Shown here: positions 4,487-19,941 of the stretch, piece by piece
Numbering within the stretch: position 1 is the first letter of the stretch
Layout: every line of letters starts with the position of its first letter
Assembly (NCBI GenBank): GCA_013387215.1
Contig: WARW01000022.1
Coordinates: 169,897 to 233,896 of the forward strand
From: Patescibacteria group bacterium
GTDB taxonomy: Bacteria > Patescibacteriota > Microgenomatia > UBA12405
Length of the DNA stretch: 64,000 nucleotides
Direction: 5' to 3'
Program-made: the position numbers and the translations under genes
The notes under the pieces: model-generated
Told to the model about the DNA's origin: nothing
Database searches by the model: none
Seen by the model: only the letters and a program-made list of their open reading frames with translations

Positions 4487-5530
4487 ATGTCATCTTTGAC
4501 CCAAACTGCTTACATGAGCAGAAATTTAATTAAATACGGCGGAAGTGGACTCGTAATCTTTTTGATTATGTGGTCGATTATTACTGGAGCAGTCAAAGCA
4601 TACAACTTAGCCCATCCTAAATATATTCCACCAACAGTCAAATATGGAGTGATGCCTAAAATTGTATTTCCAGAAAAACAATTTAACAAGAAAAATTTTA
4701 CTTTTGAATTTCCGAACGATTCGGCACCAAAATTTAAAGATCAATCTAAGGTATTTATTATTTATCGCCCAAACAGCAGCTTTTTGGCGCTTGAGGACGA
4801 TACAAAAACTGCGTCTGATTTAGGTTTTAGTTCCAAACCAACTGAAGTAAAAGAAGGGGTATATGAATTTAAAAATGATAATTTAAATCGTACTTTGACG
4901 ATGAATGTGCTAGATGGCAGCTTTAAAATGGAATATCCATTTCAAAATGACCAAATGCTTTTGACTCCTGGAAATGTTCCAGCAAAAGAAGAAGCTATCG
5001 CAATTGCATCTGCATATTTAAAAACCGGAAATAAATATGCATCTGATATTGAACAAGGCACTCAAAAAGTAAGCTTTTGGAAAATTGAGTTTGATGGACT
5101 GAAAGCTGCTGATTCCCAATCGGATGCGAATGTAGCGAGAGTTGATTTTTATCGAAAAAATTTGGAAGATGATTTAAAAATATTATCTCCAGAGGTGAAT
5201 AAAGCATCAATTTCAGTTTTAGTTTCCGGTTCTACGGTTGATAATAAAAAAATAATTCAAGTGGATTACAAATATGCCAATATCGACAGAGAATCTTTTT
5301 CTACATATCCAATCAAAACATCAGAGGAAGCTATTGCAGAATTAAAAGCCGGTAATTATTGGCCAGCCATAGATGTGAATTCTAATAACGTAATAATCAG
5401 AAAAGTTTACTTGGCATATTTTGAACCGGTAACTTTGACCAATTACATGCAGCCAATTTATGTTTTCGAAGGTGATAATAATTTCGTGGCTTACGTCCCA
5501 GCAATCATAGATAAATACGTCCAAAAATAA
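4487..5530 (+). CDS. Hypothetical membrane-anchored protein
   Basis: Long ORF with a single N-terminal TM helix, divergent from gltX; no recognisable domain. Confidence 0.45.
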   Translation: MSSLTQTAYMSRNLIKYGGSGLVIFLIMWSIITGAVKAYNLAHPKYIPPTVKYGVMPKIVFPEKQFNKKNFTFEFPNDSAPKFKDQSKVFIIYRPNSSFLALEDDTKTASDLGFSSKPTEVKEGVYEFKNDNLNRTLTMNVLDGSFKMEYPFQNDQMLLTPGNVPAKEEAIAIASAYLKTGNKYASDIEQGTQKVSFWKIEFDGLKAADSQSDANVARVDFYRKNLEDDLKILSPEVNKASISVLVSGSTVDNKKIIQVDYKYANIDRESFSTYPIKTSEEAIAELKAGNYWPAIDVNSNNVIIRKVYLAYFEPVTLTNYMQPIYVFEGDNNFVAYVPAIIDKYVQK

Positions 5531-10134: not shown

Positions 10135-10357
10135 GACAATAGCTTTAATTTTACACTGTTTTTATTAAAGCTAGGCATATATAAAAATTATATAAAAAAA
10201 CTTGATTTTCAGGGAAAAAGTGATATTATAGGTTGCATTACGAGCGAAAGCTTGTAATAAATTATTATATCGGCTTTGCCGATACTGACGAGTTTAGGTT
10301 CAAATTAAGCTTTGAGCCAGAACAGAGCCAGTGGTACTTTAAAAATACGGATTACCC

Positions 10358-10411
10358 GAGAGCTTGGGCTCATTGTGGGCAGCGCGCTGCCTAGAATGAG
10401 CACAAGCGCTC
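10358..10411 (+). promoter_or_regulatory. Long imperfect hairpin leader (apical palindrome GGCAGCGCGCTGCC) at the predicted 5' end of the 10439 transcript
   Basis: About 17-bp stem GAGAGCTTGGGCTCATT/AATGAGCACAAGCGCTC directly downstream of TTTAAAAAT (-10-like), about 28 nt before the start codon; homologous element before the paralog at 11229. Confidence 0.4.
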
Positions 10412-10438: not shown

Positions 10439-10906
10439 ATGAAAAAATTATTTTCAAGATGGTTCTTGATCCTTATATTGGTGGCTATCTTGTCCGCTTT
10501 TGCTGTTTGCTACGGAGTATCCGCATCAAATGCAAAACATACAACAGACAAATTCACGGTAGAAAATATAAATGGTGAGGTCATCTTGTCTAATTTCGAC
10601 AAAGACATTGCCTCTTATGTTGGACACCAAAGCAGTTATACTGCTACCGGGACTCACGAGTCTACCAGTCTGACAATTAATGTTGGACCTGGCGAATACG
10701 GTATAGTTGGCGGATCAAAAGTATTTTATTTTGATGACTTCTACACTGTTGTCGGACCTGGAACTTATACGTTTCAAGTCACTGACGGCTTTGCAGAAGT
10801 TGTTAATAGTAAATACGCAGCCAAACAGTGGCAATACAGATTGTGGCAAACACAAAAAAATAAATGGTCACTGAAAGGAACCTACAATACACTTTTAAAG
10901 TGGTAA
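10439..10906 (+). CDS. Small secreted protein, paralog A (signal peptide; GPG.YT..TDGF..VV C-terminal block)
   Basis: RBS AGGAGG 8 nt upstream; signal peptide with AxA-like site; paralogous to 11229..11633. Confidence 0.6.
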   Translation: MKKLFSRWFLILILVAILSAFAVCYGVSASNAKHTTDKFTVENINGEVILSNFDKDIASYVGHQSSYTATGTHESTSLTINVGPGEYGIVGGSKVFYFDDFYTVVGPGTYTFQVTDGFAEVVNSKYAAKQWQYRLWQTQKNKWSLKGTYNTLLKW

Positions 10907-10972
10907 TCCGTAAGGGCAGAATTGTTAAATCTTAATAAACTTTATGTTTATTATTTTTTATACTTTTCTGTC

Positions 10973-11028
10973 CTTTGGTCTATTGGTAAACCAATACTGA
11001 TGAGTCCGTTTTGAGGACGAAACCGAAG
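10973..11028 (+). ncRNA. Hammerhead ribozyme, type III (copy 1)
   Basis: CUUUGG-U-C^ / stem I UAUUGG-UAAA-CCAAUA / CUGAUGA / stem II GUCC-GUUUUGA-GGAC / GAAA / CCGAAG; all 11 invariant core nucleotides present, cleavage site GUC at 10978-10980. Confidence 0.85.
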
Positions 11029-11143
11029 AGGTATAGTTTTTTGGGAAATTTGTGCTAAATTACATTAGTTGTAAACTAAAATGGTTATTAAAAATAGCTT
11101 TTAATAGTCATTAGCACTTTAAAAAAGGTTGAATTGTTGTGAA

Positions 11144-11201
11144 ATGAGCTTGAGCTTGTTGTGGACAGTATTTTTACTGTTTAGAATGAGCTCAAGCTCA
11201 A
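11144..11201 (+). promoter_or_regulatory. Long hairpin leader (apical palindrome ACAGTA-TTTT-TACTGT) at the 5' end of the 11229 transcript
   Basis: 13-bp perfect stem GAGCTTGAGCTT/AAGCTCAAGCTC just downstream of TTTAAAAAA; same architecture and basal-stem sequence as 10358-10411. Confidence 0.4.
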
Positions 11202-11228
11202 ATTCTAAGAAGAAAGAAGGTGAGTTAA

Positions 11229-11633
11229 ATGAAAGGAAGGCGTTTTTTGGCTGCATTTTTGACTGTTTTAATTGTTTTTGTTTGTGTTTCAATACCTGCG
11301 TTTGCACATACTTGCAAACATGTAGACGTGAATATTGACAATTACCAATCAAACGGAGTTTATCAATCAACAGGGGTGGGTGTGACAAAAACAATAACGT
11401 TCTACGTTTGCCCAAACCAAATTGGCGTGCTTGGAGCCAATAAATATGGCGGCTACACTGATGGAGTTTACAAAACTTTTGGACCTGGATGGTACACAGA
11501 GACACTGACAGATGGTTTTGTGAATGTTGTAGACAAATCCGATGCCTGGAAAGAATGGACATACAGACTTAAAATGGCACGGGACCATAAGTGGGCAGCT
11601 AATCATCTTTTCACCAATGCGTTACCTAAGTAG
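11229..11633 (+). CDS. Small secreted protein, paralog B
   Basis: RBS GAAGGTGAG; signal peptide ..SIPAFA; C-terminal block GPGWYTETLTDGFVNVVDKSDAWKEWTYRL aligns with paralog A. Confidence 0.6.
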   Translation: MKGRRFLAAFLTVLIVFVCVSIPAFAHTCKHVDVNIDNYQSNGVYQSTGVGVTKTITFYVCPNQIGVLGANKYGGYTDGVYKTFGPGWYTETLTDGFVNVVDKSDAWKEWTYRLKMARDHKWAANHLFTNALPK

Positions 11634-11698
11634 CAATTCAACCTATGGATAGGAAATTTTATTTATAAGCAATTGCTTATTTATATTATTTCTTATCC

Positions 11699-11753
11699 TT
11701 CGGTCTATTGGTAAACCAATACTGATGAGTCCGTTTTGAGGACGAAACCGAAG
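11699..11753 (+). ncRNA. Hammerhead ribozyme, type III (copy 2)
   Basis: Same core as copy 1 with stem III CUUCGG/CCGAAG; the G-C pair here is G.U in copy 1, a compensatory-type difference; cleavage after C11706. Confidence 0.85.
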
Positions 11754-11878
11754 TGTAAGAATTGTGTTTTTTGTGATGTATGTTATATAATTTAATTAGT
11801 TAGTAGTTGTCGCCAACAACTTTTAATGAGGTTTAAACCTTTTAATTTAGTTTAGGAAAAGGAGAAATTCTTGATACT

Positions 11879-12148
11879 ATGGCAAAAAAATTATTTGTAG
11901 GCAATCTCCCATTCGCAATGAATGATGATCAGCTAAGAGAAATCTTTGCCGCTTATGGCAATGTCGTCTCTGCAAATGTCGTTATCGACAGATATGCAAA
12001 TAGGAGTAAAGGATTCGGTTTCGTTGAATTCGAAAACGAAGAAGATGCTTCTAAAGCATTAGCTTCATTAAATGGAACTGAACAAATGGGCAGAAATATT
12101 GCTGTTAAAGAAGCTTTAGCAAAGCCCGAAAGACAAGATAATCAATAA
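11879..12148 (+). CDS. RRM-type RNA-binding protein
   Basis: RNP-2 LFVGNL and RNP-1 KGFGFVEF motifs; 89 aa single RRM. Confidence 0.8.
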   Translation: MAKKLFVGNLPFAMNDDQLREIFAAYGNVVSANVVIDRYANRSKGFGFVEFENEEDASKALASLNGTEQMGRNIAVKEALAKPERQDNQ

Positions 12149-12167
12149 ATTTTCGTGTCTTTTTACA

Positions 12168-12194
12168 CCCTCCGATACTTTCGGAGGGTTTTTG
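12168..12194 (+). terminator. Intrinsic terminator after RRM gene
   Basis: CCCTCCGA-TACT-TTCGGAGGG followed by TTTTT. Confidence 0.7.
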
Positions 12195-19615: not shown

Positions 19616-19633
19616 GGTAAAATACACTATCCT

Positions 19634-19933
19634 AGAGAAGCTGAAGGGTTAACTCCGACGTAAAGCCGGAGAGGAAAGTCTGGACCACAAAAAGCAAGGA
19701 ACTTAAAAATATAGAGCAAGGCGTGAGCTTTGGGCAATGCTACAGAGACGAGTAGTCCCGCAAGGGATGAGATGAAACGAGCATCCTTCCTGTGGAAATC
19801 TCAAGTTGAGACGTTTGTATCTGGCTTCCCGAAGTAAATTCGGGATCAGGTTCGAAAGAATCTGATTTGAGAGTCTCAGGTGGAGAGAATAGATAGATGA
19901 CCCATAAACAGAATCCAGCTTAACAGTTTCTCT
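19634..19933 (+). ncRNA. rnpB: RNase P RNA (bacterial type A)
   Basis: P1 pairing AGAGAAGCUG/CAGUUUCUCU; P4 strands GAGGAAAGUCUGG and ACAGAAUCCAGCUUA match the universally conserved RNase P regions; TAAAAT -10 element 11 nt upstream. Confidence 0.8.
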
Positions 19934-19941
19934 GGGATATT

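Follow-up and report, generated by a model that had tools for sequence, protein, structure and literature searches.

Predicted self-cleaving hammerhead ribozymes follow stable hairpins in the 3' untranslated regions of small secreted-protein genes of an uncultured, Shapirobacteria-like bacterium

A 64,000-nucleotide (nt) stretch of a Patescibacteria genome (GenBank assembly GCA_013387215.1, contig WARW01000022.1, positions 169,897 to 233,896; here called the window) carries two copies of a type III hammerhead ribozyme, one in the 3' untranslated region (UTR) of each of two small secreted-protein genes. Both elements are genuine type III hammerheads for which self-cleavage is predicted, and both lie behind a long hairpin, here termed P0. 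They form part of a cassette consisting of a promoter-like region, a 5'-UTR hairpin, the small secreted-protein gene, P0, and the hammerhead; the cassette is present as a tandem duplicate between recJ and a gene for an RRM RNA-binding protein. We favor, with somewhat better than even confidence, the interpretation that the RNA cleaves itself during transcription, which gives the mRNA a 3' end protected by a hairpin and uncouples neighboring genes. The genes and ribozyme parts are listed below, where w1 and w2 denote window units 1 and 2 and, throughout, L numbers denote retrieved loci.

10439-10906 (+), small secreted-protein gene 1 of w1, an open reading frame (ORF) of 155 amino acids (aa); its 3' UTR bears P0 and ribozyme copy 1
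11229-11633 (+), small secreted-protein gene 2 of w2, an ORF of 134 aa; its 3' UTR bears P0 and ribozyme copy 2
10973-11028 (+), hammerhead copy 1, type III, read from the sequence; RF00008, 30.3 bits; our own covariance model R1, 67.8 bits
11698-11753 (+), hammerhead copy 2, type III, read from the sequence; RF00008, 44.7 bits; R1, 70.3 bits
10973-10979 (+), copy 1 stem III 5' strand, CUUUGGU
10980 (+), copy 1 C17, with predicted cleavage 3' of it
10981-10996 (+), copy 1 stem I, UAUUGG-UAAA-CCAAUA
10997-11003 (+), copy 1 core, CUGAUGA
11004-11018 (+), copy 1 stem II, GUCC-GUUUUGA-GGAC
11019-11021 (+), copy 1 G12 A13 A14, GAA
11022-11028 (+), copy 1 stem III 3' strand, ACCGAAG
C11705 (+), copy 2 C17, with predicted cleavage 3' of it, read from the sequence
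11722-11728 (+), copy 2 core, CUGAUGA, read from the sequence
11019-11022 (+, copy 1) and 11744-11747 (+, copy 2), GAA followed by A, read from the sequence

Both copies possess the entire conserved core, comprising C3 to A9, G12 A13 A14, the A15.1-U16.1 pair, and C at H17. The partner of A15.1 is U10979 in copy 1 and U11704 in copy 2, and the U16.1-A15.1 pair is intact in both. Aligned to the Rfam family RF00008 (Hammerhead_3) over model positions 1-54 of 54, the copies show type III topology, with stem III open and stems I and II closed by hairpin loops. The corresponding E values, which cover the whole 64-kb window, both strands, and all 4227 families, are 0.019 (copy 1) and 1.6e-6 (copy 2). 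Since both scores lie under the curated gathering score of 48.5 bits, a default Rfam scan misses the two copies; the shortfall is due to stem and loop composition, and the core is without deviation. The descriptor GGTC-N12-24-CTGATGA-N10-40-CGAAACC matched the window twice, against 0.00 matches expected from 100 shuffles.

The original prediction had described two canonical minimal type III hammerheads with a complete core, a GUC triplet, and an open stem III, and the direct sequence read and Rfam bear out this description apart from one adjective. "Minimal" is unproven: the combination of a 6-bp stem I and a 4-bp stem II, found in 10 of 16 aligned sequences, is associated in type III hammerheads with loop-loop tertiary contacts (PMC3088659). 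Watson-Crick complementarity between loops I and II (AAA with UUU in the window copies) did not exceed that of shuffled loops (P about 0.5), and a Watson-Crick pseudoknot between the loops was dropped on that ground. The predicted coordinates were correct throughout copy 1 and at the outer boundaries; within copy 2, C17 is C11705 rather than C11706 and the 16.4 base is C11701 rather than 11702.

Each ribozyme is 56 nt long, copy 2 is offset from copy 1 by +725, and the copies are identical over 48 bases (10977-11024 = 11702-11749). Their sole internal difference is U10976 versus C11701 (55/56 bases match), which gives a U10976.G11025 wobble in stem III of copy 1 and a C11701-G11750 pair in copy 2, whose stem III is all Watson-Crick. 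This difference had been put forward as covariation, a claim that does not hold because it is a one-sided U-to-C change between two paralogous copies within one genome. DNA identity between the tandem units is 40-55% throughout, coding sequence included, and 97% across the ribozyme, a jump that reflects either very strong purifying selection or gene conversion homogenizing the copies. The start of contig L001 at GGTC, considered as a possible RNA end, is instead an assembly break at the 48-nt repeat.

Evidence for covariation came from an alignment of 16 sequences, namely, the two window copies and 14 retrieved from elsewhere. Twelve of the 16 were found with a search pattern in which only the core and helix-proximal pairs were set; loci L002 and L019, like the inner portion of stem I, are independent of it. 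The search yielded four genome loci (two from Candidatus Shapirobacteria assemblies), eight metagenome loci, and one viral locus. Standard pairs occupy 91.2% of cells in the alignment, compared with 73.5% in shuffles (0/500 reached the observed value) and 31.6-47.8% when partners were slid, and the covariation score is 0.50 versus 0.15 for the control. Stem I is 99% paired with four covarying pairs, its inner pairs being unconstrained by the search pattern; stem II has two covarying pairs, and stem III is consistently kept only in its first three to four pairs.

All three helices show compensatory changes in homologues. Only one protein is closely related to that of gene 2 (63% identical; L002-L004/L018); its gene and that of a more distant homologue (37% identical to the gene 1 protein; L019-L021) both have a hammerhead at the same place, and L002/L018 and L019 were reached by protein homology and synteny, without the ribozyme pattern. 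Stem I pair 1.3-2.3 is U-A, C-G, and U.G across three lineages, and among the homologous lineages U-A is replaced by C-G at stem I pair 1.4-2.4, C-G by U-A at stem II pair 10.3-11.3, and, in stem III, G-C by A-U at 15.4-16.4 and A-U by G-C at 15.5-16.5. A covariance model built from the 16-sequence alignment recovered one additional hammerhead beyond the reach of the pattern, at L031:1179-1251 (+). It is of type III, with N7 = C, stem II GCCC/GGGC, and an 8-bp stem III, and because it shares the 1.1-Mb contig of L019, that genome has at least two 3'-UTR hammerheads. The L031 ribozyme lies ~105 nt 3' of a stop codon, with two hairpins likewise ahead of it; downstream come a promoter-like site and then the next gene for a secreted protein.

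The position of the ribozyme recurs across lineages. In ten independent instances (w1, w2, L002/L018, L019, L031, L005, L006, L007, L008, and L013) the hammerhead is in the sense orientation ~55-155 nt past a stop codon (~65 nt in both window units), and in all ten stable hairpins precede it. The hairpin-then-hammerhead order is seen outside the window in L002/L018, L019, L007, L008, and L013, the last three of which have unrelated upstream genes whose proteins combine a Zn-ribbon, a transmembrane segment, and a Pro/Thr linker. The constant features are thus the stop codon, the stable hairpin, the hammerhead, and the sense orientation; downstream content varies.

These observations bear on a rival explanation, that the ribozymes are selfish or neutral passengers, left by a mobile element or phage that came in with the cassette, that their identity stems from recent duplication or gene conversion, and that they have no host role. 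Most bacterial hammerheads are phage associated (PMC3088659; PMC6765202), the cassette is lineage specific (recJ adjoins the RRM gene in several relatives), 48-nt identity that includes the loops fits gene conversion, and a decayed hammerhead-like half-site lies at 10260-10313. We nevertheless regard passengers as quite unlikely. The neighbors are housekeeping genes (AspRS, RecJ, RRM, CCA-adding enzyme, SecDF) and the small proteins have no PHROGs family; the core is intact and the stems show compensatory changes across lineages whose proteins are 37-63% identical; and the ribozyme keeps its place with respect to stop codon and hairpin even where the upstream genes are unrelated.

The hairpins that abut the window ribozymes are the following.

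10908-10978 (+), P0 of unit 1; core helix of GGGCAGAA (10914-10921) with UUCUGUCC (10966-10973)
11647-11698 (+), P0 of unit 2; GGAUAGGAAAU (11647-11657) with AUUUCUUAUCC (11688-11698), and an inner hairpin AUAAGC-AAUU-GCUUAU

The last base of P0 in unit 2 is the first base of stem III (11698), and the two helices can therefore stack coaxially. The long hairpin ends 0-5 nt from stem III in seven of the ten independent instances. We refer to w1, w2, L002/L018, L019, L007, L008, and L013 as the seven P0-class members; a GGAUAG/CUAUCC base is found in five of them. Compensatory changes affect 6 of 15 P0 pairs in the trio of unit 2, unit 1, and L002 and 3 of 30 in the other trio. Predicted 5' cleavage products fold with z values of -4.2 to -7.9 in the nine elements tested, L005 and L006 included; the values are z = -7.9 for unit 1 (-25.8 kcal/mol) and z = -7.4 for unit 2. 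The minimum-free-energy fold of the whole unit 2 3' UTR consists of P0 stacked on the active hammerhead, the active fold being placed 0.1 kcal/mol above the minimum.

Window P0 is not an intrinsic terminator, which would combine a G+C-rich hairpin with an immediate U-tract: no U-tract is present in the window, and the ribozyme follows instead. Nor is it an integron attC site, as R'/R'' core sites are missing. An outer helix across P0 (CAAUUC 11634-11639 with GAAUUG 11759-11764) was discarded as well, since it occurs in copy 2 only and is about chance level. Relatives differ in what accompanies the hairpin.

L022-L029 (five lineages), recJ adjoins the RRM gene; no cassette
L030, a syntenic family member 43% identical to gene 2; hairpin CCUGUGGGUGGAA..UUCCACCCAC, then CC and U8; no ribozyme
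L019, hairpin sequence as in L030, then the hammerhead
L031 paralogue P0126, no ribozyme; its long hairpin resembles P0 and shares the inner GAUAAGC..GCUUAUC hairpin
L006, a strong hairpin, the ribozyme, then a normal terminator
L007, L008, and L013, the ribozyme, then a perfect TTGACA-17-TATAAT promoter
L005, an A+T-rich stretch 3' of the ribozyme

Because recJ adjoins the RRM gene in five lineages, the small-gene cassette is a lineage-specific insertion between them. By its structure, the L030 hairpin with U8 is an intrinsic terminator, so that one and the same hairpin sequence precedes a predicted terminator tract in L030 and a hammerhead in L019. Gene 2 of L019 had been considered as a terminator-bearing paralogue and was set aside, since it bears no relation to the small-protein family; the proper comparison sets L030 against L019. 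As part of our preferred interpretation we entertain, at a little below even confidence, the idea that the hairpin-hammerhead combination can be exchanged for an intrinsic terminator, with a ribozyme in the role of the U-tract.

Hammerhead self-cleavage leaves 2',3'-cyclic phosphate and 5'-OH ends. In our preferred interpretation, RNA polymerase would pass A+U-rich P0, which has no U-tract, into the ribozyme; the ribozyme would fold with P0 stacked on stem III and cut 3' of C10980 or C11705. The upstream mRNA would then end in P0 plus a few nucleotides bearing the 2',3'-cyclic phosphate and should resist 3' exonucleases, while the downstream RNA would begin with a 5'-OH ribozyme body detached from the upstream message. 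RNA reading through gene 1, gene 2, and the RRM gene would in this manner be cut into single-gene mRNAs. With such a capped upstream end and detached downstream RNA, the module would be a 3'-end-forming and insulating element, in the place that an intrinsic terminator occupies in the related gene of L030. The same two products, an upstream mRNA with a cyclic phosphate and a ribozyme body on readthrough RNA, had been predicted originally, and they fit a sense-strand site 3' of a gene. The sequences show the identity and position of the ribozymes, the hairpin, the conservation, and a relative's counterpart of hairpin plus terminator; cleavage in vivo, stabilization of the mRNA, and the fate of the polymerase we infer from the arrangement.

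Several observations weigh against this interpretation. Both copies score below the Rfam gathering threshold (30.3 and 44.7 versus 48.5 bits), the promoter assignments are consensus matches only, and cleavage in an uncultured host is a prediction made from sequence alone. The 48-nt identity includes the loops and may reflect gene conversion instead of purifying selection. The ribozyme in L006 has a normal terminator after it, and ribozymes are thus not always terminator substitutes; moreover, the polymerase is not obviously released at the window module, in contrast to an intrinsic terminator. An embedded 3' end (a 1- to 2-nt tail) is predicted in six of the seven P0-class members but also in 18-32% of shuffled sequences, and it is accordingly no evidence by itself. 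Finally, the active fold is not always the most stable one. In unit 1, the P0 extension (CCG, AA with UU, UGG) overlaps and competes with the stem III 5' strand, and the copy 1 active fold lies 3.2 kcal/mol above the minimum, in which P0 is extended over that strand; in L007 and L008, the active fold is 6.3-6.5 kcal/mol less stable than the competing fold. Since the competing fold is the more stable in w1, L007, and L008, P0 could inhibit cleavage rather than assist it.

Competition of this kind is strongest in w1, L007, and L008 and makes conceivable a regulated, possibly translation-coupled switch that lowers expression. Cleavage would occur only upon unwinding of the P0 5' strand, such as by a ribosome that terminates 2-15 nt upstream, and would destabilize the mRNA. 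Bases 16.2-16.x can pair upstream in all seven P0-class members, with the paired state being that of minimum free energy in w1, L007, and L008, and the P0 5' strand or its extension starts 2-14 nt past the stop codon in w1, w2, L002, L019, and L008. However, in w2, L019, and L013 the active fold lies only 0-1.2 kcal/mol above the minimum; the hairpin or extension of L007 and L013 starts about 21-25 nt past the stop codon, outside the footprint of a terminating ribosome; and a hairpin-ended product is the classical stabilizing arrangement. We consider a conditional switch unlikely.

A further question is which gene the ribozymes serve. The next gene downstream, which lies outside the cassette, and the elements around it are as follows.

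11879-12148 (+), RRM RNA-binding protein gene (Pfam RRM_1, E = 1.5e-25), syntenic in all relatives
11766-11791 (+), RRM promoter-like block TTTTTGTGA..TGTTATATAAT, 3' of copy 2, invariant in eight lineages
12167-12189 (+), the first canonical G+C-rich intrinsic terminator after genes 1 and 2, located beyond the RRM gene

Trimming could provide the gene 2 and RRM mRNAs with a defined, structured 5'-OH end, as has been proposed for the hammerheads of prophage clusters and of halovirus HF2. Gene 2 is bracketed by two ribozymes and the RRM gene is preceded by one, like gene-flanking clusters (PMC3088659), no strong terminator lies between gene 1, gene 2, and the RRM gene, and in L011, an unrelated metagenome match, the start codon directly follows the ribozyme; in L012 an ATG stands one base after it. 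Against a downstream role, the RRM promoter-like block and 5' UTR lie 3' of the ribozyme and are kept in eight lineages with or without the cassette; in five of the eight, recJ is directly adjacent and neither cassette nor ribozyme is present. The ribozyme tracks the upstream gene family (L019, L002) and not the downstream gene, and what follows it varies between a promoter (L007, L008, L013), a terminator (L006), and an A+T-rich stretch (L005). We therefore judge service to the downstream gene improbable and, because the RRM block persists without the cassette, assign the ribozyme to the upstream gene. The original prediction of readthrough toward the RRM gene carries the qualification that the ribozyme is part of the upstream gene cassette and the RRM gene has its own promoter-like block. 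That block, the P0 hairpin abutting stem III, and the 3'-UTR site after paralogous genes are context that the prediction did not include.

Within the RRM 5' UTR of eight lineages (11766-11878 region of the window; L002, L019, L022, L024, L025, L027, and L030), invariant motifs were observed (GCCAAC; AGGTTT(TA)AAACCTGTTAAT, a small hairpin), which suggests a conserved leader or regulatory structure. In L007 (about 2470-2505, - strand), L008 (about 4690-4725, - strand), and L013 (about 1690-1720, + strand), a block CCTATAATCTTGAC(A/T)TTTT stands soon after the hammerhead. The CCTATAATCTTGAC block of L007 and L008 reads as a perfect sigma-70 promoter (TTGACA-17-TATAAT) and is followed by a long structured 5' UTR and another secreted-protein gene. 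The three loci suggest arrays of independently transcribed surface-protein genes parted by hairpin and hammerhead.

The two predicted cleavage sites that flank gene 2 are 725 nt apart, and double cleavage would free a 725-nt RNA (U10981-C11705). This RNA would carry 5'-OH and 2',3'-cyclic phosphate ends that could assemble a complete hammerhead again, and ligation by the ribozyme itself or an RtcB-type ligase would close it into a circular gene 2 mRNA. Two identical type III hammerheads in the same orientation have the geometry of a viroid or retrozyme unit, and the chimeric stem III (C11701 with G11025) would be all Watson-Crick. Against this, each gene has its own promoter-like region, and L002/L018 and L019 have a single ribozyme each, which excludes circle formation as the ancestral function; Perreault et al., too, were unable to detect circles among the products of bacterial clusters (PMC3088659). 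The chance that circles form is in our estimation very slight. If they did, the gene 2 circle would be a natural bacterial, exonuclease-proof circular mRNA for a secreted protein, made by hammerheads.

The remainder of the cassette is likewise repeated. Inverted repeats at two positions specify a 5'-UTR hairpin.

10358-10411 (+), 5'-UTR hairpin of unit 1, also present in unit 2 and L019
11145-11200 (+), 5'-UTR hairpin of unit 2, conserved with unit 1

The hairpin is ~50 nt long (..GCUCAUUGUGGRCAG..CUGYCUAGAAUGAGC..), with its L019 counterpart at about 2623-2665. Across the three sequences, 5 of the 23 predicted pairs show compensatory change; no Rfam family corresponds to it, and it is absent from L002. 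It could serve as an mRNA stabilizer or a cis-regulatory element. Upstream of it is a box, GNACTTTAAAAA, at 10333-10345, 11113-11125, and about 398-410 of L002, and ~70-90 nt upstream of GNACTTTAAAAA all three small-gene upstream regions have a block, TTTGTNNTAAATTA, that resembles an extended -10 element. GNACTTTAAAAA and TTTGTNNTAAATTA are likely promoter elements.

A candidate third hammerhead 5' of gene 1 (UAUCGGCUUUGCCGAUA-CUGACGAG, 10268-10292) was rejected, having no Rfam match and 17 bits in our own model. The surrounding stretch, 10260-10313 (+), resembles half of a hammerhead, with a stem I hairpin UAUCGGC-UUU-GCCGAUA followed by CUGACGAG and with neither a GUC site nor a CGAAAC box. 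It may be a decayed ribozyme relic at most, or a chance match.

The gene 1 and gene 2 proteins are paralogues (36% identical), each with a hydrophobic, signal-like N-terminal segment, and neither matched a Pfam or PHROGs family. An AlphaFold model of the gene 2 protein (pLDDT 70) shows a signal-like helix, a beta-sandwich, and a C-terminal helix, and comparison of this fold gave no significant match. The proteins share an ~85-aa core, Y.ETG.G..K....V....IVGG..V.G..DGVYK..GPGTYT.TVTDGF..VV....A..E..FR..QA...GWA. This domain has no Pfam match in the two window proteins. At E up to 1e-3, 152 representative clusters contain it, usually at the C terminus of 150- to 430-aa proteins that begin with a Zn-ribbon or signal and also have a transmembrane segment and a linker rich in Pro and Thr. 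Direct homology of the small proteins to the genes upstream of the L007, L008, and L013 ribozymes was undetectable, and similarity to the L006 upstream gene was marginal (E = 0.008 in a tiny database). Three proteins, P0136, P0162, and P0180, combine the ~85-aa domain with the C-terminal domain of the L007/L008/L013 upstream proteins. The small proteins thus appear tied to those upstream proteins only through domain architecture and co-occurrence.

The nearest homologues of the RRM protein are labeled Candidatus Shapirobacteria, and the host is an uncultured, Shapirobacteria-like bacterium of the candidate phyla radiation. The flanking genes are housekeeping genes encoding RecJ, the RRM protein, and a class II CCA-adding enzyme, joined in relatives by AspRS and SecDF. 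No phage-like gene was found among the neighbors, and the locus thus lacks the prophage setting that is usual for bacterial hammerheads (PMC3088659). Elsewhere in the window, the RNase P RNA gene at 19633-19934 (+) has as its best, full-length Rfam match the archaeal model RF00373 (101.7 bits; gathering score, 84) and not a bacterial model; a weaker match to a family of the same clan was suppressed by the scanning tool.

The window elements resemble several known systems and differ from each of them. They share with the type III hammerhead family (RF00008, clan CL00010) all core positions, the G10.1-C11.1 pair, the three helices, and the 6-bp/4-bp geometry of stems I and II, but they have a long P0, outside the family model, that abuts and partly competes with stem III. 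As in prophage clusters (PMC3088659), several ribozymes in the same orientation bracket single genes; in the work of Perreault et al. (2011), bacterial hammerheads in gene-flanking clusters cleaved transcripts of roughly 2 kb in vitro, and the role proposed for gene-flanking hammerheads is cutting long transcripts into single-gene mRNAs (PMC3088659). Unlike those clusters, the window ribozymes occur in a housekeeping context and are tied to the 3' UTR of one gene family and to a hairpin. With intrinsic terminators they have in common a position right after the stop codon and a stable hairpin at the new 3' end, and the L030 terminator hairpin matches L019 P0 in sequence. The difference lies in how the 3' end would arise, by predicted self-cleavage that leaves a 2',3'-cyclic phosphate rather than by U-tract release that leaves a 3'-OH.

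Felletti, Bieber, and Hartig (RNA Biol 2016/17; cited in PMC6765202 and PMC5502269) reportedly placed engineered ribozymes in bacterial 3' UTRs. In such engineered bacterial constructs, as in mammalian CLEC2, a ribozyme stands between the stop codon and the 3'-end signal and its cleavage sets the mRNA 3' end; the CLEC2 hammerhead, however, is discontinuous and lowers expression, whereas the window case is natural, bacterial, and preceded by an upstream hairpin that would be protective. The glmS ribozyme is likewise a bacterial cis-cleaving ribozyme governing the fate of its own mRNA but is located in the 5' UTR, depends on a metabolite, and has an unrelated fold; its 5'-OH product is said, after Collins et al. 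in 2007, to be a substrate of RNase J1. Ribozymes in 3' UTRs affect expression in bacterial reporters (PMC6765202), and such effects are already known (PMC6765202; PMC5502269), as are the hammerhead class and gene-flanking hammerheads. The roles of bacterial self-cleaving ribozymes other than glmS have been called "largely elusive" (PMC6765202). A full-text literature search found no paper linking hammerhead ribozymes with the candidate phyla radiation; two papers that name Patescibacteria mention hammerhead a single time each. What is new is the lineage of the host, the setting among housekeeping rather than phage genes, the close coupling to a hairpin on the 5' side, and, in a relative, the counterpart in which a U-tract terminator follows the same hairpin.

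Most known hammerheads reside in prophages, where function is hard to isolate, and the window locus provides a clean non-phage case. There, the ribozyme stays with the 3' UTR of a single defined gene family, always has a stabilizing hairpin before it, and is far better conserved than the adjacent coding sequence. The natural pair of L030 and L019 makes testable the hypothesis that a hammerhead replaces the release step of termination and sets a protected, cyclic-phosphate 3' end. These findings extend hammerheads to bacteria of the candidate phyla radiation, whose reduced genomes make RNA-only solutions interesting.

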